A stretch of 64,000 nt of DNA, from assembly GCA_038870975.1 (NCBI GenBank), contig JAVZJD010000001.1, forward strand, positions 704,001-768,000, written 5' to 3'. Position numbers and translations under genes: made by a program. The DNA is from Candidatus Bathyarchaeia archaeon. Lineage in GTDB: Archaea; Thermoproteota; CALKCG01; B24. The notes under the pieces are model-generated. The model ran no database searches, had not been told where the DNA came from, and saw only the letters and a program-made list of their open reading frames with translations. Positions 45,704-57,178 of this stretch are shown piece by piece. Numbering within the stretch: position 1 is the stretch's first letter; the number at the start of each line of letters is the position of its first letter.

Positions 45704-45917
45704 ATATTAACTTTACTAGACTGAACTGCCTTCAATCCATTTGTTTTCACAGGTAACATCAATAATATTGATGCTACGCTTCGCTGTAGATTATTATCTT
45801 ATTTACCCGGAATTTTTAAAAAGATGTCTAATGTTCCTAATACTATTTAATGGTCATTCAACTCCTGAGTTTCCTTAGTGCCATGGGATTAGCTATGCTA
45901 TATCTATAAAATTTTCC

Positions 45918-45960
45918 TTATCTAAATTTTAGACAAATTTTCTTGTCTAAAACTTTAAAA
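45918..45960 (+). promoter_or_regulatory. Palindromic operator abutting TATA box of ORF 45981
   Basis: ttatctaaa-ttttagacaa-attttc-ttgtctaaaa-ctttaaaa; 25 bp identical to 56684-56708. Confidence 0.7.
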
Positions 45961-45980: not shown

Positions 45981-46526
45981 TTGAACATGATTGAAAAATG
46001 GAGAAAACATGATATTTATTATGGCTATGAGTATTACTACAAGTTAAATGACCTTATTAAATCTGGTAAATGTAACCACGATGTAAGAAGCACTCCAGAG
46101 TATAAATTGCTATCAACTATAAACCCTCATCTCGCTGAGGCTCTGGCTATTGAAAATGAAATTATTAATTTAAGGAATTCGCTTAAGAATAATCGTTCAG
46201 AGAAAGGGAAAAACAACTATCTAAAAAATTTAAAGCTTCAAAATCAGATAAGAAAACTTGAGCTTAAGAGAGATCTTGAATTGAATAAAGCTAAAACAAG
46301 ATTAGGTTATATAGATACAATGAATGCTTGGAAAAGAAGGAGAGCTAAGGAAAAAATCGCAAAAATTAGAAAAATACCAGGCAAAGTTAAAACCAAGATC
46401 AATGATTTCATAACAAGTCTTATAGCCAAAGGGATTGAAAAAACTACTATTCCTTATAAAATAGAGGAAATTGTTAAAAACGGAATGAATCAGACGCTAA
46501 AAGATCTGGTGGAGGAAAAAAGTTAA
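45981..46526 (+). CDS. Hypothetical basic, AT-rich protein
   Basis: 181-aa K/N-rich ORF preceded by TATA-like and GAGG sequences. Confidence 0.6.
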   Translation: MNMIEKWRKHDIYYGYEYYYKLNDLIKSGKCNHDVRSTPEYKLLSTINPHLAEALAIENEIINLRNSLKNNRSEKGKNNYLKNLKLQNQIRKLELKRDLELNKAKTRLGYIDTMNAWKRRRAKEKIAKIRKIPGKVKTKINDFITSLIAKGIEKTTIPYKIEEIVKNGMNQTLKDLVEEKS

Positions 46527-46574: not shown

Positions 46575-47819
46575 TTAATCTTCATTAACTACTGTTATGT
46601 GAGTTGCACAGGATATACAGGGGTCGAATGCCCTTATAGCGGTTTTAAGATTTTCCACAGCCTCTTTTACTGGTAGACCTTTTTCAAGAGCCCTTTCAAC
46701 GATATTTCTAGAAAACGCCTTAAGAAAGGGTAGATTTAACTCCGTTGGAGTTATTATTTTAATGCTCTTTACTACTTCTTCTTCAACTTCACACTCGTAA
46801 ATCAATGTACCCCTAGGAGCTTCAACGAAACATCTTCCGAAGCCGCTCTTCTTCTGTGGAGTTTTCCTGTACAATCCTTCTAAGTCCTTTAAAGTTCTCA
46901 ATAAATTCATAGAATACGATAGAGCATTTATAATCTCTAAAATCCTAAGCATGTAAAGATTAAGTAGATTATAAATTGGGAGACCCTCTTCTAGACTATA
47001 ATGTAAGCTAATGAGAGTTTGTCGAGCCAAAGGCCCTGTAAGAATGTCTCTAGTTAACAGGTCTTTAAGTTCTTCCAGAACTTCTAACTCTCTCCAGCTT
47101 GTGCCCTCGTATACCTTAAGCGTACCGTTTATCGGATCCATATCTCTACCGAAGCTTGTAATAAGAGCAGGTGTTCTCTCCAAATTAAACATCTCATAGT
47201 ATTTAGACTTACTAAGATTCTTGGAAATGTTCAGAGCCCAGTTCATGTCTTCCAAGACCTTTTTAACCTCTCTCTCAAGATCGTTTATTGAAGACCCTAC
47301 GATCGGCATATTTAGAAGACCTCCTACTGTCGATATCCCAGGTGATATGGGTCCTCCCGCTATTGATGATAGTAGTCGATCGGCAAACCTTATAACGTTT
47401 AAACCACTACGGAGTAGTCTATAATCCAATAGCTTTTCATCCATTCCAAGAAGTCTAGTGGCATCTTGAAGTCCCATTAAAAAAAGATTATAGGAATGAC
47501 TTCTAATATGTTCTAAGCTCAGAATCAGCCGTCTAACACTTGATGCTAATGGAGGTGCTTCTACATTCAAAGCCTTCTCTAATGCTATAGAGGCGGCTAT
47601 TTGGTGAGAAAACGGGCAGACGCCACATACTTTTGTCACTAACGATGGAATAATGTGGGCTCTTTTTCCGCGTAGAAGGGTTTCAAACTTCCTTAAAACC
47701 GGAAGATTAAGCTCCAATTCTTGAACCTTCCGTTTATGTATTTTAACGATGACTTCTGAAGCGCCTTCAACTCTCGTAAGCGGATGTACTTGTTTAAAAG
47801 ACATACTCCCTCTTCCCAT
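46575..47819 (-). CDS. Group 3 [NiFe]-hydrogenase large subunit (start probably 47804)
   Basis: TRVEG, L1 KVCGVC, EAPRG, L2 DPCISCATH plus 7-aa C-terminal tail. Confidence 0.92.
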   Translation of the reverse strand: MGRGSMSFKQVHPLTRVEGASEVIVKIHKRKVQELELNLPVLRKFETLLRGKRAHIIPSLVTKVCGVCPFSHQIAASIALEKALNVEAPPLASSVRRLILSLEHIRSHSYNLFLMGLQDATRLLGMDEKLLDYRLLRSGLNVIRFADRLLSSIAGGPISPGISTVGGLLNMPIVGSSINDLEREVKKVLEDMNWALNISKNLSKSKYYEMFNLERTPALITSFGRDMDPINGTLKVYEGTSWRELEVLEELKDLLTRDILTGPLARQTLISLHYSLEEGLPIYNLLNLYMLRILEIINALSYSMNLLRTLKDLEGLYRKTPQKKSGFGRCFVEAPRGTLIYECEVEEEVVKSIKIITPTELNLPFLKAFSRNIVERALEKGLPVKEAVENLKTAIRAFDPCISCATHITVVNED

Positions 47820-48537
47820 ATAGGTTTAGGATATCTATAACATCATACTTCAACTCCTTAGGAATGGTAAGTAAAGCTAAGAAATCAATTAGAGATGTTA
47901 ACGAATTATCCTTAAGTGTACCCATACATCCATAGCAACTCCCACCTTGAACAATACATTTTGCCTCACATCCAGCTCTAGTTATAGGTCCAAGGCATAG
48001 AATCCCCTCCTCTAATAGGCACTGCTCGGTTTTCCGCTTTGGAAAAATTTCTCTAATGATTATTGGATATTTTGCCCTACAAGGATGGAATGGGCACTCT
48101 GAGCATACGTTAACTGTCTTATGTTTGAATTCTCTACCACCGATTAAGGCGTAAAGTAGCATCGACATCAGGTTTTCAGGAGGGGGGCAACCTGGGAGCT
48201 CCAGGTCCACTTTTATTATACTATGTATGGGTTTAAGCTCTAGCTCTTTAACATTGCTCGAGATACCTCCAAAGCATGCACAAGACCCTATGGAAATTAC
48301 TCTTCTAGCCTTTGCACGTACTTTTTTAAGCAATTTTTCATCTTCTTTCAAAGCTGAGCCCTCTATAAGTAGCACATCACAATCATCTACATCTCCCCCA
48401 TCCTTTATCATTGGGAAAAAAGCCACGTAACCCTTATTCCATAGTTCTCTAAAGACACTTGAATCTATTACTGATGTTAAACAGCCGCTGCATCCAATAA
48501 ATTGGAGGAAACCTATTTTAGAGGCTTTTAGCCCCAT
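47794..48537 (-). CDS. Group 3 [NiFe]-hydrogenase small subunit (MvhG/HyhS-like)
   Basis: GCSGC, GSCACFGG, PGCPP, CSEC...CLGPITRAGC.A.C......CYGC. Confidence 0.92.
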   Translation of the reverse strand: MGLKASKIGFLQFIGCSGCLTSVIDSSVFRELWNKGYVAFFPMIKDGGDVDDCDVLLIEGSALKEDEKLLKKVRAKARRVISIGSCACFGGISSNVKELELKPIHSIIKVDLELPGCPPPENLMSMLLYALIGGREFKHKTVNVCSECPFHPCRAKYPIIIREIFPKRKTEQCLLEEGILCLGPITRAGCEAKCIVQGGSCYGCMGTLKDNSLTSLIDFLALLTIPKELKYDVIDILNLYGKREYVF

Positions 48538-48539
48538 TG

Positions 48540-51017
48540 CTAAGAACCTCCTAGGTTGCGCATAAAATCGTCCAAAGCTTTTGCGAAAACCCTCCCCTCA
48601 ACGGCAGACAACTGAAGGATTTTAACTTTATTTTTAAACATATTTTCAAATAACTGGATGTTTTCTATTCTTTTCTCAGCAAGTTCAGCTCCTAAACCAT
48701 AGCGGCATGACTCTTTCCTACATCCAACTACTAATACGCCATCGAACCCCTTCTCTAAAGCGTGGGCTATAAGCTCTGAATCTATTAGTCCAGCACACGT
48801 AACTTTCAATGTAAACGCTTTAGCGGTATATTCCAGACTTTTAACACCAGCATCTATGAATGCAGGATAGCCGCAGTTAGCACAGGCTAGCACTAAAACC
48901 TTCGGTTTAAAGTATGCCTTTGAAAATTCATCCATAAATGCTAATAACTCCTCTTCATTAATTGAGGATAAGCGTAGCGCATCTGTAGGACATACCGCCG
49001 TACAAAGACCACAAGCCTTGCACTTGAACTGATCTACGGTCATTTTGTCCGCAGAAAATTTTATTGCGTTAAATGGACACACTGTAGCACAAAGACCGCA
49101 GGTTCCACAGCTTTTTTCGTCTAATAAAATCCCCTCTTCCTCCACTGTAACTTCACCTTTCGTGAGAAGGGAAGCCACTTTTAATGCTGTAGATTGAGCA
49201 TCGTAGACAAGTTCTCTGTACGTTTTAGGACCAGTTATGGAACCGCATGCGAAAATACCAAAGGGTAACGTATCAGGGTTTAAAAACCCCCTATCTGTTG
49301 TAGAGATATCTAAAAGTTTTTTAAGCTCCATTATACGCTTTCTGGGGTCTTCTCCCAAGTTTAAGATGACTAAATCGCAGTCCCATTCAAATTCATCCCC
49401 TAAAACCTTAGGGCCTTCCTCAATACGTAAGTTCTTAACAATATGAATGGGTAGGTCTTTCAAATTACCCAAAGGCGCATTTGCAGGAATCCTATCCTCT
49501 TCAAAAATTATTCTTATATCCATACTAGAGTCCATCTTCTTCAAAGTTTCAAAATACTTGCGAGCAAGAATGCAACAGTATTTTGAGCAACCTACTTCAT
49601 TTATACATTGAATGATAGCTACCTTTTTGGGATGGGATTTACCAAATCTTAGTAAAACTTCTTCGATTGGAGCTTCTGGGGTGAGTAAGCTCTCTAATTC
49701 GACGTTCGTTATGACGCCAGTAGTCAATCTATGTTTAAACTTTTTCAATAGTTCGCCATTGTAGTTATCGCAACCCGTTGCGATAACTATGGCTCCCACT
49801 CTGTATATATTCTCCATGCCTTTTGAATCGAAATTTATAGCTCTTGATGGACAGTTCTCTTCGCATTTGCGACATGAAAAGCAACGTTGGTTGTCATTTT
49901 TATCCACGATTGCTGCTTTAGGATAAACCGTCGATAATGGGAGGAAGATCTGTTTTCTGACAGTAAAGCCTAGATAACGTTCGTCTGGCTTTTCTACGGG
50001 GCAAACTTCAATACAGCGGCCACAGAGAGAACACCGTTCAGCATCCACATACGTAGGATTAGTCTTAACTATAAGTTGGAAATCCCCAATCTTCCCAGAA
50101 ATTTGGATAACTTCGGAGTTTGTGAGTATTTTAAGATTTTTAAACTCCAGAACGCTTGAGATTATTTCAGACATCATACAGCTAGCACAGTCACTTTCGC
50201 CATACACACTACTCCAATTCATTACCCTACCGCCTAATGTATGCTCCCTCTCTATCAAGTATGTTTCAAACCCCATTAAAGTCATGTATCTGGCAACAAT
50301 TAAACCGCTTATTCCTCCTCCTATAATCGCTACAGACTTAGGAATACGGACAGTCCTCTTGAAGGGCTTAGGTTTAAAATTTATCGCTCGAACAGCTCCA
50401 TTAATTGTACACATAATCTTCTCGAAAGCTTCCTTTGGAGAACTTCGGTTAACCCTTATGCATCCTTCAAGGATATTTACAGCTTCGTAAGGAATATCTA
50501 TGGTTGAAAGAAGTTCACGTAATCCATTATGAATCTCCGGAGAGCAACCTACTATAACAATTCCATCTAAAAGGTTTCTCTCTATCCACTTTTTTATCCT
50601 CTGAAAATTCCCAGGGCTACATACGTTTTTAAATACGTCAACGGCTACAATATTTTCCATTTCAGATAGCTTTGATGATAACTCTTCTAAATTTATAACC
50701 TTAGAAACTTCACCATGACATTCACAAAATATTATACCAATTCTAGAAACACGTATAGGCTCAGCAACACCAGTACGCCTAACTCCCAACCCCTCTTTAA
50801 GTCTTAAGAAATTGTAAAGTTCGTAACCTTCTTCATTTAAAGAATAAAGTTTTCCCCTCTTCTCTATAAAGGGTGAAATCTTACTCAAATGATAATTAAA
50901 TTTACCAGTTTCTTTAACCCCCACCTTTTCCATAAGCTCAGAATAGGTTAGGGGACCCAGTTCTCCTAAAACCCTGATTATGCTTTCTCTTATAGGATGG
51001 GTTAAAACATCGAACAT
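48540..51017 (-). CDS. Winged-HTH + HdrA-like flavoprotein + MvhD fusion
   Basis: aa 1-73 wHTH (LTHPIRESIIRVL..YSELME..GKFNYHL..YSL); HdrA motifs (FCEC, GCSP, IGGGISG, DCASC, IQC..CSKYCC, GPK, four ferredoxin motifs); MvhD motifs (CANCGY, CAG, DGVLVVGC...C.Y). Confidence 0.88.
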   Translation of the reverse strand: MFDVLTHPIRESIIRVLGELGPLTYSELMEKVGVKETGKFNYHLSKISPFIEKRGKLYSLNEEGYELYNFLRLKEGLGVRRTGVAEPIRVSRIGIIFCECHGEVSKVINLEELSSKLSEMENIVAVDVFKNVCSPGNFQRIKKWIERNLLDGIVIVGCSPEIHNGLRELLSTIDIPYEAVNILEGCIRVNRSSPKEAFEKIMCTINGAVRAINFKPKPFKRTVRIPKSVAIIGGGISGLIVARYMTLMGFETYLIEREHTLGGRVMNWSSVYGESDCASCMMSEIISSVLEFKNLKILTNSEVIQISGKIGDFQLIVKTNPTYVDAERCSLCGRCIEVCPVEKPDERYLGFTVRKQIFLPLSTVYPKAAIVDKNDNQRCFSCRKCEENCPSRAINFDSKGMENIYRVGAIVIATGCDNYNGELLKKFKHRLTTGVITNVELESLLTPEAPIEEVLLRFGKSHPKKVAIIQCINEVGCSKYCCILARKYFETLKKMDSSMDIRIIFEEDRIPANAPLGNLKDLPIHIVKNLRIEEGPKVLGDEFEWDCDLVILNLGEDPRKRIMELKKLLDISTTDRGFLNPDTLPFGIFACGSITGPKTYRELVYDAQSTALKVASLLTKGEVTVEEEGILLDEKSCGTCGLCATVCPFNAIKFSADKMTVDQFKCKACGLCTAVCPTDALRLSSINEEELLAFMDEFSKAYFKPKVLVLACANCGYPAFIDAGVKSLEYTAKAFTLKVTCAGLIDSELIAHALEKGFDGVLVVGCRKESCRYGLGAELAEKRIENIQLFENMFKNKVKILQLSAVEGRVFAKALDDFMRNLGGS

Positions 51018-51388: not shown

Positions 51389-52822
51389 TTAAAATAATGC
51401 TTCCATAATACCCAACGAGCCTCGTTTTTCTTCTTCAGTACTACTTAAAATTTGCGCTAGAAGTCCTTCTCTCTTCATAGTTATTTCTGGTCTCAAATAT
51501 GGTTGACCCCCTCCATAAAGACATCCTCTATTACATATGTAGAGTTCTATCGCTCCTTCTCGTAATCTTCCATCATTTACGCTCATTAATATTCTCTCCA
51601 TCTCTTGAATTCCTACAGCTTTATTTGTTTTAAAGTTTAACTCATTTAATTTAACCTCATCAAATGACTTTTCAGTCAATATACCGAAGTCTAAAGTACT
51701 TAGTAATCTGATAAGTTCTCTCGTAGTAAGAATAAGCCCTCTACTAAGTTTCCTAGCTAAACACGAAGTAATCCATACAACAGAAGAGCTATCGATTTTA
51801 GGAGGCTCAATCATATACTTAGAAAGTTCTGGATGAAATCGCTGTATATAGATTGCTTCAGCCTCACTGCTTGGAATTATCGTTAGATTATCTTGCACTC
51901 TCACTGCAACCTGAGGCCTCCAGAGGATAACTTTTTCAAATCCTAATTTTTTAAGTGCTGCTACTGCGATTCCGCTAATTCGTTTATCAAAATTCAGTTC
52001 TTCACCAAGAGCTGCTAAAACCTCTGGTTCAACATAGGCTGTTAAGCGAGTTCCAGATTTAAGAAGCCTCTGAACCTCACTTACGGAGCTTCTCTCCTTT
52101 AAAGCACCTACCGGGCAGTATAACGTACATTGACCGCAACTTATGCAAGATGACTCATCTAGCTTAACTTTAAATGGTGTGGATACTGTTGTCTCAATGC
52201 TTCTGTTTATATAGTCTATCGCAGAAACAATTTCTTGACATACTTTAACGCATCGGCCACATGTAATACATTTCTCCCCGTCTAATGATAATGCAGTTCC
52301 CTCGATATCCAGTGTTTTCTCACGAATAAATGGAAATCTTCGCTCCTCTTGTTTAAACCACACGTTTTGGAGAATCTTCTCTAAAAGACTTAACAATTCA
52401 TATCTATTCATCGGGCATCCTCTAACGTAATAATCGACATTGACGAATCTGCTAACTGGCATCGCCTCGCTAAAGTATTTATGTTCAGAGTAATCTTCAA
52501 CATACACACTTTTTACTTCATCTTCATTTGTAAATCTTCTTAAGCCTGGCACACCGCCTAAAACTGCACATGATCCCATTGCTATTAATATCTTAGATCT
52601 TCTTCTGATGTCTTTAATCGTCGCAACATCTCCCTCCGAGACTATAGCACCCTCAATTAGAGAAATGTCATAGTTTTCACATTTTTCATCTGCTCCCAAA
52701 AGCGTGGAGAATACAACCTCAACTTCTTTATTGTAGACCATTTTCAGCAAGTCTTCACTTAAATTTAACATCTCAATAGTACAACCCGAACAACTTCCAA
52801 ACTTGTATATGGCGATTTTCAT
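51389..52822 (-). CDS. Chimera: [NiFe] small-subunit N-domain + 2x[4Fe-4S] + degenerate [FeFe]-hydrogenase H-domain
   Basis: GSCSGC, EGAI, GSCAVLGG, GCP; CITCGRCVKVC, CISCGQCTLYCPVGAL; ALGEE, ALKKLGF, TSCLARK, LTTREL, ELYICNRGCLYGGGQP. Confidence 0.85.
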   Translation of the reverse strand: MKIAIYKFGSCSGCTIEMLNLSEDLLKMVYNKEVEVVFSTLLGADEKCENYDISLIEGAIVSEGDVATIKDIRRRSKILIAMGSCAVLGGVPGLRRFTNEDEVKSVYVEDYSEHKYFSEAMPVSRFVNVDYYVRGCPMNRYELLSLLEKILQNVWFKQEERRFPFIREKTLDIEGTALSLDGEKCITCGRCVKVCQEIVSAIDYINRSIETTVSTPFKVKLDESSCISCGQCTLYCPVGALKERSSVSEVQRLLKSGTRLTAYVEPEVLAALGEELNFDKRISGIAVAALKKLGFEKVILWRPQVAVRVQDNLTIIPSSEAEAIYIQRFHPELSKYMIEPPKIDSSSVVWITSCLARKLSRGLILTTRELIRLLSTLDFGILTEKSFDEVKLNELNFKTNKAVGIQEMERILMSVNDGRLREGAIELYICNRGCLYGGGQPYLRPEITMKREGLLAQILSSTEEEKRGSLGIMEALF

Positions 52823-53527
52823 CTACTCATCACCTTCATCAAACCATTCATTTTTATTATTCTTATTGAAGAACTGTGCTATCACTTTAACAACGCTATC
52901 ATAGTATGGACTGCTAGAATAATATCTACCCAGTTTCACAAGGATATTCTCCAGAGTTATTCCATGACTGCTATAGAGCTTCACAGCCTCTTTAATTACA
53001 TCAGTACGCATTATCGGTCCACGGCATCCTTCACAGCTTCTATTACTGTGCATACATATGCCATCACATCCAGCGACTGTTAGAGGTCCAAGGCATACTT
53101 CACCGTTAGCCAATAGACAGTCTTCTTCATGCAAGGGGCACTCTGCGCACACAGGTATACCTTCAACACCATATTCCTTACATAAAACTAGTAATTCACA
53201 TTTACCTCCCTTTCTTGGGCATGATTGACACTTAATCTTATGAATAGCTAAAATAACCTCCAAAGCCAATTTACGGTCGCTTCTAACTCTTTCATTATTT
53301 GTTTCCACGTTTAATCCTTCAGATACGGGGAATGCACATGAAGGAATCATCTTACCAGTTTTCTTATCCTCTACCACACATATTCTACATGTAGCTTCTT
53401 CAAACACATTGGGGAAATAACAAAGGGTAGGTATTTCTATACCGAGTTTTTTCGCAGCCTCAAGTACTGTAGTACCATCTTCAACAGTAGCCTCTTTCCC
53501 ATCTATGATTACCCTTACCATGCTCAT
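52823..53527 (-). CDS. Chimera: NuoG/HydA-type [2Fe-2S] + His-ligated [4Fe-4S] domain + [NiFe] small-subunit C-terminal Fe-S domain
   Basis: IPTLCY..CRICVVE..PSC; HKIKCQSC....CEL; CAECP....CLL..G.VCLGPLT.AGC...C......CEGCRGP. Confidence 0.85.
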   Translation of the reverse strand: MSMVRVIIDGKEATVEDGTTVLEAAKKLGIEIPTLCYFPNVFEEATCRICVVEDKKTGKMIPSCAFPVSEGLNVETNNERVRSDRKLALEVILAIHKIKCQSCPRKGGKCELLVLCKEYGVEGIPVCAECPLHEEDCLLANGEVCLGPLTVAGCDGICMHSNRSCEGCRGPIMRTDVIKEAVKLYSSHGITLENILVKLGRYYSSSPYYDSVVKVIAQFFNKNNKNEWFDEGDE

Positions 53528-53528
53528 A

Positions 53529-55508
53529 TCACCTCTTTACTACGGCCCCTCTTGGGCATACCATGGAGCATTGTCCGCATCTTATGCACCTTTCAGCATC
53601 TATATAGTATTTGCCATCAATATCCTTAAATATTGCTTCAACGGGACAATTCTTCGCACAGAGTCCACATCCTATACAAACATCCTTATCGATTGTATAG
53701 TTTAACAGCTTTTTACATACTTTTGCGGGGCACCTCTTCTCGTTAATATGGGCCTCATATTCCTCCCTAAAGTATTTGAGTGTTGTTAAAACTGGATTTG
53801 GAGCCGTTTGGCCTAACGCACATAAGCTTGCATCTTTCATGAATTTACTTACGTTTTCTAAGACTTCCAAGTCTTCTTCCAAACCACCTCCATCTATTAT
53901 TCTGCTAAGGGTATCATAAAGTATCTTTGACCCTGCTCTACATGGTAGACATTTACCACAGGCCTCAGCCATAGTAAATGTTGTGAAAAACCTCGCTACG
54001 TCTACTATACAGTTGCTATCATCAATAACGACTAATCCACCAGACCCCATTATAGCACCTGCAGAGGTTAAACTTTCATAGTCTATCGGTAAATCAAGTG
54101 CACTTTCAGGTAAGCATCCTCCAGAGGGTCCACCAATCTGAACGGCTTTAAATTTTCTCCCTTCTCTAATGCCTCCTGCTATCTTAAATATGAGTTCTCT
54201 TATTGTTGTTCCTATTGGGACTTCAGCAGCCCCTGTCCTCTTAGCACATCCAGTAATACAGAAGACCTTTGTCCCTTTACTTCTCTCAGTTCCATACCTG
54301 GCAAACTTTTCCCACCCTTCGGCCATTATTGTAGCTACATGAGCTAGCGTTTCAACGTTATTGATGGTCGTCGGTTTACCAAATAAGCCATGTGTAGCTG
54401 GATATGGTGGACGCTGTCTTGGCATAGCTCGCCTCCCCTCTATGGCTGCTAACATCGCTGTTTCCTCTCCACAGACAAATGCTCCTGCGCTCCGTACAAC
54501 TTCTACGTTGAAGTTAAACCCTGAATTGAATATGTTTTTTCCTAAGAAACCGTATCGCCTAGCTTCATCAACTGCCTTTTCCAACCTTTCAGCCATCAGG
54601 GCTTTCTCCGCTCTAACAAAAATATATCCATATGTAGCACCTATGGCGTATGCAGCTATTATTAAGCCTTCTAAAACTCTATGAGGATCTGCTTCAGCAA
54701 GCATCCTATTCATGAAAGCTCCAGGATCTCCTTCATCAGCATTGCATATAACGTATTTAGGTTCCCCCTGAGCCTTTCTACATATATCCCATTTTAACCA
54801 TGTTGGAAAACCAGCTCCTCCTCTTCCTCTTAGACCAGACCTCTTAACTTCTTCTATAACCTCTCCAGGTGATAATTTTAATGTTCTATTGAGGCCAAGG
54901 TAGCCACCGTGAGCAATGTACTCTTCAATTGACTCGGGGTTTATGATGCCACAATTTCTGGTAACCCACTTCACTTGATACTTGTAGAAGTCTATCTCCT
55001 CTAAGAGAGGAACCTTATTTTCACCTCTAGCATTACCCGTTCTACTTCTGAGAGCAAAGGCGTTGCTAACATCACCATTATTTAAATATTCATCTAGAAT
55101 TTTTCCGACATTTTCAGGAGTCACTTTACTATAAATGGCATGAGGTAATCCATCCTTACGTATTTCGACTAAAGGTTCAGCATAACATAAACCCATACAG
55201 CCAACGGGGACGATAGAAACTTCTAATCCTCTTTGCTTAACTTCTTTCTTGATAGCGTGATAAACTTCCCCAGCTCCAACAGCTAAACCGCAGCTTCCCA
55301 TGCCCACAGTTATTTTTACTCCACCCTTACCATTTCTTATCTCTGAAATTCTCCGTAACCTTCTTTCTTTACATTCCACGTCTTTATGGCATAATGGGCC
55401 ATTAACTCTACATGTTATATAGTCCTTGCAGGGTCTCTCAATCTTATGGTTGCATTGACTACAACAGGCATCCATTAAACTCAATCCATTATGGACATCC
55501 AATGGCAT
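53529..55508 (-). CDS. NADH-binding flavoprotein HydB/NuoF type with extra Fe-S domains
   Basis: Thioredoxin-like 2Fe-2S N-domain, GRGGAGFPT, NADEGDPGAFM, CGEET, GGPSGG, CGKCLPCR, C-terminal 2x[4Fe-4S]. Confidence 0.93.
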   Translation of the reverse strand: MPLDVHNGLSLMDACCSQCNHKIERPCKDYITCRVNGPLCHKDVECKERRLRRISEIRNGKGGVKITVGMGSCGLAVGAGEVYHAIKKEVKQRGLEVSIVPVGCMGLCYAEPLVEIRKDGLPHAIYSKVTPENVGKILDEYLNNGDVSNAFALRSRTGNARGENKVPLLEEIDFYKYQVKWVTRNCGIINPESIEEYIAHGGYLGLNRTLKLSPGEVIEEVKRSGLRGRGGAGFPTWLKWDICRKAQGEPKYVICNADEGDPGAFMNRMLAEADPHRVLEGLIIAAYAIGATYGYIFVRAEKALMAERLEKAVDEARRYGFLGKNIFNSGFNFNVEVVRSAGAFVCGEETAMLAAIEGRRAMPRQRPPYPATHGLFGKPTTINNVETLAHVATIMAEGWEKFARYGTERSKGTKVFCITGCAKRTGAAEVPIGTTIRELIFKIAGGIREGRKFKAVQIGGPSGGCLPESALDLPIDYESLTSAGAIMGSGGLVVIDDSNCIVDVARFFTTFTMAEACGKCLPCRAGSKILYDTLSRIIDGGGLEEDLEVLENVSKFMKDASLCALGQTAPNPVLTTLKYFREEYEAHINEKRCPAKVCKKLLNYTIDKDVCIGCGLCAKNCPVEAIFKDIDGKYYIDAERCIRCGQCSMVCPRGAVVKR

Positions 55509-55626
55509 TCACCTCTATGGGAAGTTGAAGGAATTATAAGAGTACTTTAATTAAAACATAAGTATACTACCTATATATGGGAATAATTCCTTTCGCCGTA
55601 GATTTATAATTCAAAAATGTTCACCT

Positions 55627-56190
55627 CTATATTTCGCCATATGATTCTCCTTTAGTTTTAGTTCGATACTTGGAAATTATCCTACGGAGCTTCTTAAAAT
55701 CAACTTCACCATATATTTCATCATTCACTTTGATAACTGGGGCTAGACTGCAGCATCCTAGGCATCTAACTTTAAATACAGTGAAGAGCCTATCCTTAGA
55801 AGTATTTTCGCCAGGATTAATATTAAGTAAATTCAGTAGGAAGTTGTAGTTTTCAGAGTTGCCTTTAATATGGCACGCTGTGCCCATACATATTTGTATT
55901 ATATTCTCACCGGGCGGCTCCATATTGAATTGATGGTAAAACGTGGCGACTCCATAGATGCTACTTAGTGGTACTTTTAAATTGTTTGAAACAAGTTCTA
56001 AGCTCCACTTTGGAAGATAACCTAATCTATTCTGAATTTTCTGGAGGATCAGAATGAGGGTTTTTCTAGATCTACCATTACTTTCAATAACATTGTTTAT
56101 AACTTCCTCAATAAATGCTACATCAACATCTCTAGATACTTGCTGTTGCAAATCCTCGCCTCCATTGCTCTGTTGTTCTCTGGGGCTCAC
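55627..56190 (-). CDS. HydC/NuoE-type [2Fe-2S] subunit
   Basis: GVATFY, CMGTACH, CLGCCSLAP. Confidence 0.93.
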   Translation of the reverse strand: MSPREQQSNGGEDLQQQVSRDVDVAFIEEVINNVIESNGRSRKTLILILQKIQNRLGYLPKWSLELVSNNLKVPLSSIYGVATFYHQFNMEPPGENIIQICMGTACHIKGNSENYNFLLNLLNINPGENTSKDRLFTVFKVRCLGCCSLAPVIKVNDEIYGEVDFKKLRRIISKYRTKTKGESYGEI

Positions 56191-56199
56191 CTACTACGC

Positions 56200-56640
56200 T
56201 TATAGTTGCGCTCTTAAGAAGTACCATAGATGCTTGCAGAACTCTTCATACTGTTGTGGAGTAAATAGATATTGGATGTCTTCTTCAAGATTTGTTGGCT
56301 CAACTTCAGCAACCCACTCTTTTTCTGGGTCGTTATTTAAAGCTGATATGTTGTTTAAAGCTTCATCATTAATCTTTTTAATTCTGCCAGAAACTGGTGA
56401 AGTTAATTCAAAAGTGACCCCCTTCATTTTCACTGCCCCTAAGGGCTCCATCCGTTTAACCTCAGCTCCAATCGGCTTCAGCTCACAACAAACATCATAT
56501 GCTCCATTTTTGCTCAATTCTTTAAAACAATCACATATTTGTTGAGTTAATCCAATTCTAACAGTTTGTTCATCAGTAATCGTTACCCACATGAGGGAGG
56601 ATGTGTAGAGGAAACCTGAAGGGTAAATTTTCTTACTCAT
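56200..56640 (-). CDS. Glycine cleavage H-like protein lacking the canonical lipoyl Lys
   Basis: Y....MWV, RIGLT, SPVSG.I..IN, N.DP...W, Y fold signature. Confidence 0.82.
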   Translation of the reverse strand: MSKKIYPSGFLYTSSLMWVTITDEQTVRIGLTQQICDCFKELSKNGAYDVCCELKPIGAEVKRMEPLGAVKMKGVTFELTSPVSGRIKKINDEALNNISALNNDPEKEWVAEVEPTNLEEDIQYLFTPQQYEEFCKHLWYFLRAQL

Positions 56641-56675: not shown

Positions 56676-56719
56676 TTTTAAACTTTTAGACAAATTTTCT
56701 TGTCTAAATTTTAGATAAG
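56676..56719 (-). promoter_or_regulatory. Palindromic operator abutting TATA box of the gcvH-like/hydCB operon
   Basis: Minus strand reads cttatctaaaatttagacaagaaaatttgtctaaaagtttaaaaa; same layout as 45918-45960. Confidence 0.7.
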
Positions 56720-57178
56720 AAAATTTTTATAATCATATCAACTACTAAGAACCTATTTGAGAACCTTGAATTTTAGACTTCCAACTCTACACTTCTTCTG
56801 AGTATTTATCTAAAAATGTTTTCCAGTCTTTACTACATCGTTTTCTATCTTATTTCTGGCAGAATATAGGATACTTATTGACAAAGAAAATTGCTATTTG
56901 TCTCTTTTGAGCATTAGCTTAAGTAATACAGTATAATCTTTAACCAAAAACATAATTCAGTTTTCCCCTCCATGTCCATCTTTACTCATCGTAAGAGCGA
57001 TAAACAATATCAATACAGAATTTATTAGCAGAAGAGTGCTCCGAGCGGGCACTGTCACTTCGGGTCCAAATCTCTTCTCCCCGCCTAACCCCTCAATGGT
57101 CGTTCTCACTGATAGTTGTACTTGAAGATGCCGGAAACAGTCTGAAGATATGGGTTAGAAAGTCCATTAGAAATTTGA

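Follow-up and report, generated by a model that had tools for sequence, protein, structure and literature searches.

What is a winged helix doing at the N-terminus of a hydrogenase-associated flavoprotein? The question is raised by a stretch of 64,000 nucleotides from a Candidatus Bathyarchaeia archaeon (GenBank assembly GCA_038870975.1, contig JAVZJD010000001.1, positions 704,001 to 768,000 of the forward strand), hereafter called the window, in which one open reading frame (ORF), P0001 (48540-51017, minus strand), encodes a domain of the winged helix-turn-helix (wHTH) type fused to HdrA and MvhD. Judged from sequence, the winged helix rather probably binds a palindrome, TTAGACAA-N6-TTGTCTAA with the core GACAA-N6-TTGTC, and the enzyme doubles as a repressor in the manner of PutA or RbkR. 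A first-pass annotation of this DNA had already proposed a trigger enzyme that senses the H2/flavin redox state and controls transcription. The transcriptional part of this proposal now gains comparative support from a palindrome that is conserved, almost unique in the genome and accompanies the gene cassette, which is what is new here; the assignment of P0001 as its binder is deduced, as the related genome G007 discussed below makes plain, and the redox or H2 signal is conjectured by analogy with PutA.

P0001 comprises 825 amino acids in a single uninterrupted frame with an ATG start and no internal stop, as the first-pass annotation had read it, and the sub-domain borders given there (wHTH at about 50800-51017, MvhD at about 48540-48910) are right within a few codons. 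Four segments follow one another on the minus strand, namely the winged helix (residues 1-72, 50802-51017), a flexible linker (residues 73-91, 50745-50801), the HdrA core (residues 92-700, 48918-50744) and the MvhD/FlpD domain (residues 701-825, 48543-48917). The full-length AlphaFold2 (AF2) model has a mean predicted local distance difference test score (pLDDT) of 87.6. Pfam assigns residues 2-69 to DUF7347 (PF24038) with an E-value of 3.4e-14 and 53 bits against a cut-off of 27.6 (53-59 bits across the Pfam tests), together with a weak match of HTH_20, and AF2, Foldseek and sequence conservation delineate the same domain.

The HdrA core, recognized by both Pfam and NCBIfam, harbors an MvhD-like N-domain (Cys98, Cys100, Cys133 and Cys158), a flavin adenine dinucleotide (FAD) domain, the CSKYCC cluster motif (residues 477-482) as well as an inserted and a C-terminal ferredoxin domain (residues 322-394 and 631-683 according to Pfam), each of the 2x[4Fe-4S] type. 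The FAD/nicotinamide adenine dinucleotide (NAD) Rossmann motifs are located at residues 228-269, the FAD motif reads GGGISG, and a GPK motif is found at residues 596-598; all of the motifs for which the first-pass annotation had claimed retention are thus present. In the HdrA family alignments the glycines G233, G235 and G238 and the cysteines C98, C133 and C158 as well as those within C329-339, C382-389, C477-482, C637-647 and C666-676 form invariant or nearly invariant columns. The MvhD domain (PF02662, residues 707-822) is matched with an E-value of 5e-25 and 88.4 bits against a gathering score of 22.3, and its cysteines C712, C715, C741 and C766 are conserved among the homologues. Since all cofactor ligands are conserved, P0001 is not a decayed sensor domain, and an intact catalytic part and a domain of DNA-binding type are found in one polypeptide. 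The NCBIfam HdrA models align only from residue 92 onward, and P0001 stays below their equivalog cut-offs (NF040770, 459 bits vs 1100; NF041891, 323 vs 1300).

The stop codon of P0001, ending at 48540, lies 2 bp from the start (48537) of the next ORF, again as noted earlier. This ORF encodes an MvhG-like [NiFe] hydrogenase small subunit (47794-48537, minus strand) with the small-subunit cysteine motifs and is followed by the gene of an MvhA-like large subunit (46575-47819, minus strand) with the motifs VCGVCPFSH and DPCISCATH. With the L1 and L5 CxxC pairs, the cluster cysteines of the small subunit and the adjoining MvhD, the three-gene cassette has the features of an Mvh-type (group 3c-like) hydrogenase.

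When P0001 is compared with the distant members of its family, the winged helix is 38-56% identical, the catalytic domains 32-46% and the linker 0-26%; by these sequence identities, the winged helix is the domain under the strongest constraint. No variation is seen at T37, G38, N41 and H43 in the recognition helix (ETGKFNYHL) or at Y58, L60 and G64 in the wing. The AF2 model, with a pLDDT of about 95 in this domain, depicts helices at residues 8-20 and 25-32, the recognition helix at 37-46, a β-hairpin wing at 51-60 and a further helix at 62-76, while the linker has a pLDDT below 50 in both the isolated-domain and the full-length models. The top structural matches returned by Foldseek are all DNA-binding repressors of the ArsR, HxlR and MarR types, i.e. 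BigR, YodB (template modelling score 0.72, root-mean-square deviation 1.8), the QsrR-DNA complex, HxlR, NolR, HlyU and CadC. Small stand-alone DUF7347 proteins also match the ArsR family HTH_5 and are annotated as ArsR-type regulators. A sequence search of the PDB with the wHTH gave marginal matches only (E-value of 0.05 or above), and a complex prediction for two wHTH copies (residues 1-95) reached a score of 0.01 vs a mark of 0.42, a result that counts neither way.

The palindrome occurs in the window as two identical 22-mers, TTAGACAAATTTTCTTGTCTAA, situated at the two borders of the hydrogenase block. The first putative operator, O1-A (45929-45950), heads an ORF of 181 amino acids (45981-46526, plus strand) and lies between its start and a TATAAAA box (45905-45911); the second, O1-B (56686-56707), lies between a TATAAAA box (complement of 56725-56731) and the start codon of a GcvH-like/NuoE/NuoF/NuoG-like/hybrid-hydrogenase operon (ATG at 56640). 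In the 1.85-Mb genome both the 22-mer and its 10-base core are found exactly twice. The two copies share an identical geometry with the center of the TATA box 31.5 bp from that of the palindrome, so that the palindrome covers the expected transcription start; in archaeal promoters a site downstream of the TATA box that covers the start is in the position of a repressor. In both copies a weaker palindrome overlaps the TATA box (next to O1-B it has three mismatches and spans 56711-56732), and the start codon comes some 40 bp further on. The centers of the half-sites are 11 bp apart, i.e. one helical turn, a spacing that fits two winged helices placed on the same face of the DNA.

The same element is found in the relatives of the cassette. 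A 73% identical relative (locus L001 of genome G006) has exact half-sites with another spacer before its GcvH/NuoEF operon, at the orthologous site (L001:13495). Among the distant loci, seven out of nine contain the core with at most one mismatch between genes, upstream of either the fused gene or the operon to which it belongs (P 0.0003-0.011 each, calculated per locus from Markov shuffles). In L002, L004, L059, L060 and L061, whose fused proteins are 34-41% identical to P0001, this core is often present twice (P 0.0004-0.011). Further loci were fetched afterwards as a validation set: in L067 an exact core lies 269 bp upstream of the fused gene, and in L066 exact cores lie upstream of both a neighboring gene and the FrhB-like gene located before the fused one (P 0.0003 for L066 and L067). 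Exact cores number eight in the 128 kb of related loci, each of them in an intergenic stretch inside the gene cluster or adjoining it. As a consensus, the sites read T-T-w-G-A-C-A-A, followed by an A/T-rich N6 and T-T-G-T-C-w-A-A, and a flanking GATAAG...TTATC element is common to the present genome and the Loki-type loci.

Within the class, exact palindromes are confined to the genus of the window. Homologues of the 181-aa ORF, too, were found in this genus only (G004, G005 and G007); the copies in G004 and G007 are preceded by the exact palindrome and the one in G005 is cut by the contig end. A match with two mismatches in G003 falls within a coding region and appears fortuitous. Different genes stand next to the sites: that of the 181-aa protein in the present genome, those of DUF2096_N proteins in Bathyarchaeia, and those of a 205-263-residue family in the Loki-type loci as well as in L060. 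The wHTH-HdrA-MvhD, MvhG and MvhA genes are the only ones common to the operator-bearing loci, G007 apart, and the winged helix is the only DNA-binding domain within this common triplet.

Some of these variable neighbors recur as well. The members of the 205-263-aa family, of unknown function and mutually homologous by BLASTP (L066:159-800 and L067:3569-4186, both minus strand; L060:5822-6610, plus strand), are each encoded immediately downstream of an operator-like site adjacent to the cassette, and in the Asgard-type loci L066 and L067 they are followed by an Mpt_N-domain gene. The DUF2096_N genes, which encode small four-helix-bundle proteins, are divergent from the fused gene in three related loci (L002:8634-9428, L059:2481-3321 and L004:8380-9707, all minus strand). 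In L004, from Bathyarchaeia, one DUF2096_N protein is fused to an HdrC-like ferredoxin domain and a CCG (HdrB-like) gene follows; CCG genes are found near the cassette in some of the distant relatives.

Taken as a bifunctional trigger enzyme, P0001 would combine the intact HdrA-MvhD subunit of an Mvh-type [NiFe] hydrogenase with a DNA-binding domain. The N-terminal ArsR-like winged helix, held on a flexible linker of about 20 residues, would bind TTAGACAA-N6-TTGTCTAA, whereby the two winged helices of an assumed dimeric complex, as in methanogen HdrA, would read the two half-sites. As the palindrome overlaps the predicted starts of the hybrid-hydrogenase/NuoEF operon and of the 181-aa gene, binding should amount to repression of the hydrogenase block. 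The core is found before the fused gene itself in most of the distant relatives, which implies autoregulation there. More speculatively, and by analogy to PutA, the DNA might be released upon H2-driven reduction of the flavin/Fe-S chain or upon assembly with partner modules. It is possible, if doubtful, that the wHTH-HdrA-MvhD/MvhG/MvhA complex constitutes a self-contained H2/redox sensor-regulator whose main job in this genome, devoid of any HdrB/D partner, may be the regulation of the neighboring hybrid hydrogenase: electrons from H2 would pass via MvhAGD to the HdrA flavin, and the reduction state would decide whether the two winged helices hold the operator.

Several observations weigh against a repressor role of P0001. 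In the present genome and in L001, GACAA-N6-TTGTC is absent from the 370-500 bp directly upstream of the fused gene, which would consequently regulate its neighbors but not itself, barring co-transcription with the operon upstream. The 'Korarchaeota' loci L058 and L068 show no motif, with only 43-58 bp of upstream sequence. The net charge of the winged-helix domain is only 0 to +6. A genome of the same genus, G007, carries the exact palindrome with the whole promoter architecture before a gene for a 185-aa protein 55% identical to the 181-aa ORF (L054:9519-10131, on G007:C10; exact palindrome, third half-site and a Shine-Dalgarno-like stretch), while neither the wHTH-HdrA gene nor orthologues of MvhA and NuoF were found in its assembly, the whole 10-kb hydrogenase block is absent from it and its only DUF7347 resides on NrdD. 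Either the block is missing from this 87%-complete bin or another protein reads the operator there; with an operator standing without the fused gene, P0001 as its binder is an inference.

Another owner of the palindrome would have to be a regulator maintained in both Thermoproteota and Asgard archaea and transferred together with a three-gene cassette in which the winged helix is the only DNA-binding domain, and for so widely shared a regulator more than two sites would be expected in each genome. For these reasons it is considered unlikely that the wHTH binds DNA elsewhere, or loosely tethers the enzyme to the nucleoid, while the palindrome belongs to a different protein, even though the operator of G007 and, in this genus, the missing motif just before the fused gene both speak for such an arrangement; the incompleteness of G007 leaves room for a simple loss of the block from the bin.

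Two specific candidates for the owner of the palindrome were considered and rejected, one as unlikely and the other as the common factor of the loci. The first is a second DUF7347 winged helix outside the window, present in a 756-aa NrdD fusion with an ATP-cone (G000:C1:452262-454532, corresponding to L009:5263-7533). No motif is found upstream of nrdD, and the NrdD fusion occurs in almost all of the 17 class genomes, whereas the exact palindromes occur in the one genus. Frames of about 750-770 residues with the same N-terminal wHTH, identified by frame only, are present in 15 of these genomes, and in the other two the wHTH frames are longer (826 and 856 residues). The second candidate, the 181-aa protein, was matched by BLASTP neither to any small ORF flanking the cassette in the operator-bearing Bathyarchaeia and Asgard loci nor, with this query, to a homologue in G006, although the latter has the block and one operator.

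Alternatively, the winged helix could serve in protein docking and connect the HdrA-MvhD-Mvh unit with a further redox module such as the neighboring NuoEF or hybrid hydrogenase. A precedent that counts against a DNA-binding role is BamF, whose wHTH, according to a cryo-EM preprint, interfaces with BamI and links a HydBC-like to an HdrA-like module (bioRxiv 10.64898/2026.04.10.717634), and a HydBC-like operon indeed adjoins P0001. In P0001, however, the wHTH precedes HdrA on a disordered and unconserved linker, outside MvhD, and distant relatives keep it without a NuoEF module nearby. As its nearest folds are those of DNA-bound repressors and the cassette-linked palindrome would be left unexplained, a docking function appears quite improbable.

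A search of 5.8 billion proteins yields nine homologues with both PF24038 and PF02662 at 34-90% identity, of which one, P0008, has a mis-called start, its full winged helix being encoded from L004:9935. The same uninterrupted architecture is carried by at least 12 independent assemblies from several phyla; the sources of the homologues are named as Thermoproteota/'Korarchaeota', Bathyarchaeia and Lokiarchaeia/Promethearchaeota (Asgard). That the fusion arose artefactually, by frameshift, read-through or misassembly, or that its HTH is a decaying remnant, a view favored by a close relative (P0297) that yields a 123-aa product with the frame broken inside the HdrA N-domain, is hardly credible given these assemblies, the wHTH being the best-conserved domain of the family and the 12 wHTH proteins forming one clade. 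Thereby both doubts voiced in the first-pass annotation, an artefactual fusion and a separate or decayed HTH in the relatives, have fallen away. P0297, from a 311-kb Joint Genome Institute (JGI) contig, is 82% identical over the wHTH; the frame is lost some 25 residues into the HdrA N-domain, pointing to a frameshifted copy or an error in sequencing and not to a clean domain split.

When the winged helix is removed and a maximum-likelihood tree is calculated from the remaining HdrA-MvhD body, all 12 wHTH-bearing proteins fall into one clade (100 in the Shimodaira-Hasegawa-like approximate likelihood-ratio test, SH-aLRT), which indicates a single origin and no loss among those sampled. One of the nearest clades without the wHTH (L069) possesses plain HdrA-MvhD/MvhG/MvhA cassettes, with an HTH gene also absent as a separate unit; two such cassettes stand in tandem at L069:921-8981, with no operator-like core at up to one mismatch. 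In all 12 relatives' loci examined the small-subunit gene directly follows the fused gene, and the large-subunit gene comes next wherever the contig extends far enough.

The architecture is rare among HdrA proteins, as only about six out of 691 HdrA-like matches (E-value below 1e-30 among 1.84 billion cluster representatives) align from residue 1 or 2. Within the class the fusion is confined to its own genus, where four of the six genomes contain it (17 class genomes examined), and in a sample of 401 genomes of the phylum it is present in five, a patchy distribution as expected for a transferable cassette. With residues 1-90 as query, a word-indexed homology search returned close relatives only. 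Public records label the proteins solely as 'hydrogenase iron-sulfur subunit', 'FAD-dependent oxidoreductase' or 'DUF7347 domain-containing', and no paper describing a wHTH-HdrA-MvhD fusion was found in the literature searched.

In function P0001 most resembles the trigger enzymes PutA and RbkR, in structure the HdrA-MvhD fusions of Mvh-type hydrogenases. PutA of E. coli and Salmonella carries a ribbon-helix-helix domain on a proline dehydrogenase and represses its own pathway, and its switch, membrane binding upon reduction of the FAD, has been demonstrated. Common to both proteins are the N-terminal DNA-binding domain on a flavoenzyme and, as proposed for P0001, repression of the own pathway and a flavin redox switch; contrary to PutA, P0001 combines a winged helix with HdrA, and its switch is hypothetical. 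A hydrogenase that controls the expression of hydrogenase genes, the putative role of P0001, exists in Cupriavidus, where the H2-sensing [NiFe] hydrogenase HoxBC signals via a separate kinase and response regulator (HoxJ/HoxA), whereas in P0001 the DNA-binding domain would sit on the hydrogenase complex itself.

RbkR is an archaeal riboflavin kinase with an N-terminal wHTH, for which palindromic operators before its own and pathway genes were identified by the same comparative logic; the enzyme stays active, and operators as well as kinase activity were later validated in vitro (PMC5397151). It is a small kinase, in contrast to P0001, a multi-cluster flavoprotein of a hydrogenase complex. With the methanogen MvhAGD-HdrABC complex (PDB code 5ODC, a template in PMC11216029) and HdrA2, P0001 shares the HdrA domain order, the cysteine ligands, the FAD motif, MvhD and the Mvh-type small and large subunits encoded alongside, but it has an additional N-terminal wHTH, scores far under the equivalog cut-offs, and is found in a genome without a detectable HdrB/C/D (CCG-domain) protein. 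BamF of class II benzoyl-CoA reductase (bioRxiv 10.64898/2026.04.10.717634) likewise has a winged helix on an MvhD/HdrA-type module with an adjoining HydBC-like module; there the wHTH is part of the MvhD adaptor and contacts BamI, whereas in P0001 it is located 630 residues before MvhD, on a linker and accompanied by the palindrome.

Almost nothing is known about how uncultured Asgard and Thermoproteota (TACK) archaea control their hydrogen metabolism, a process at the heart of models for syntrophy and the origin of eukaryotes. If P0001 acts as proposed, an electron-bifurcation-type flavoprotein serving as repressor of hydrogenase operons would link the H2/redox state to transcription without a separate sensor, and the trigger-enzyme concept would be broadened beyond small metabolic enzymes to include a multi-cluster redox complex. 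Should the complex also be the sensor, it would represent a one-component counterpart of regulatory hydrogenases common to Asgard and Thermoproteota (TACK) archaea. The defined 22-bp putative operator and the 80-residue domain can be tested in vitro without cultivation.

Upstream of P0001, and separated from it by a gap of 370 bp, the five-gene operon under O1-B (51389-56640, same minus strand) comprises, by Pfam and NCBIfam matches, GcvH-like, NuoE-like, NuoF-like, Fer2/NuoG-N-like and small-subunit/[FeFe]-like hybrid genes. Such an arrangement resembles that of the group F hybrid hydrogenases described by Greening et al. 2024 (PMC11216029). The operon has no large-subunit gene of its own, the sole one nearby being that after P0001. 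Scans of the locus and of the 370-bp gap against Rfam and for promoters and terminators found nothing. On the other side, the 181-aa ORF under O1-A, a putative regulon member with no Pfam match and of unassigned family, is rich in Lys and Arg, is probably helical and faces the hydrogenase block.

The genome, which is 92.9% complete and consists of two contigs, contains four [NiFe] large-subunit genes (C1:68285, 110940, 751493 and 994437), and P0001 holds its only FlpD/MvhD. No CCG-domain protein (PF02754, HdrB/HdrD/GlcF-type) is matched in it, the control search being positive in 12 of 14 reference genomes. Lacking an HdrB or HdrD partner, P0001 is not part of a heterodisulfide reductase here; its electrons may be passed to ferredoxin or to the neighboring NuoEF/hybrid module, or it may serve mainly as a sensor.

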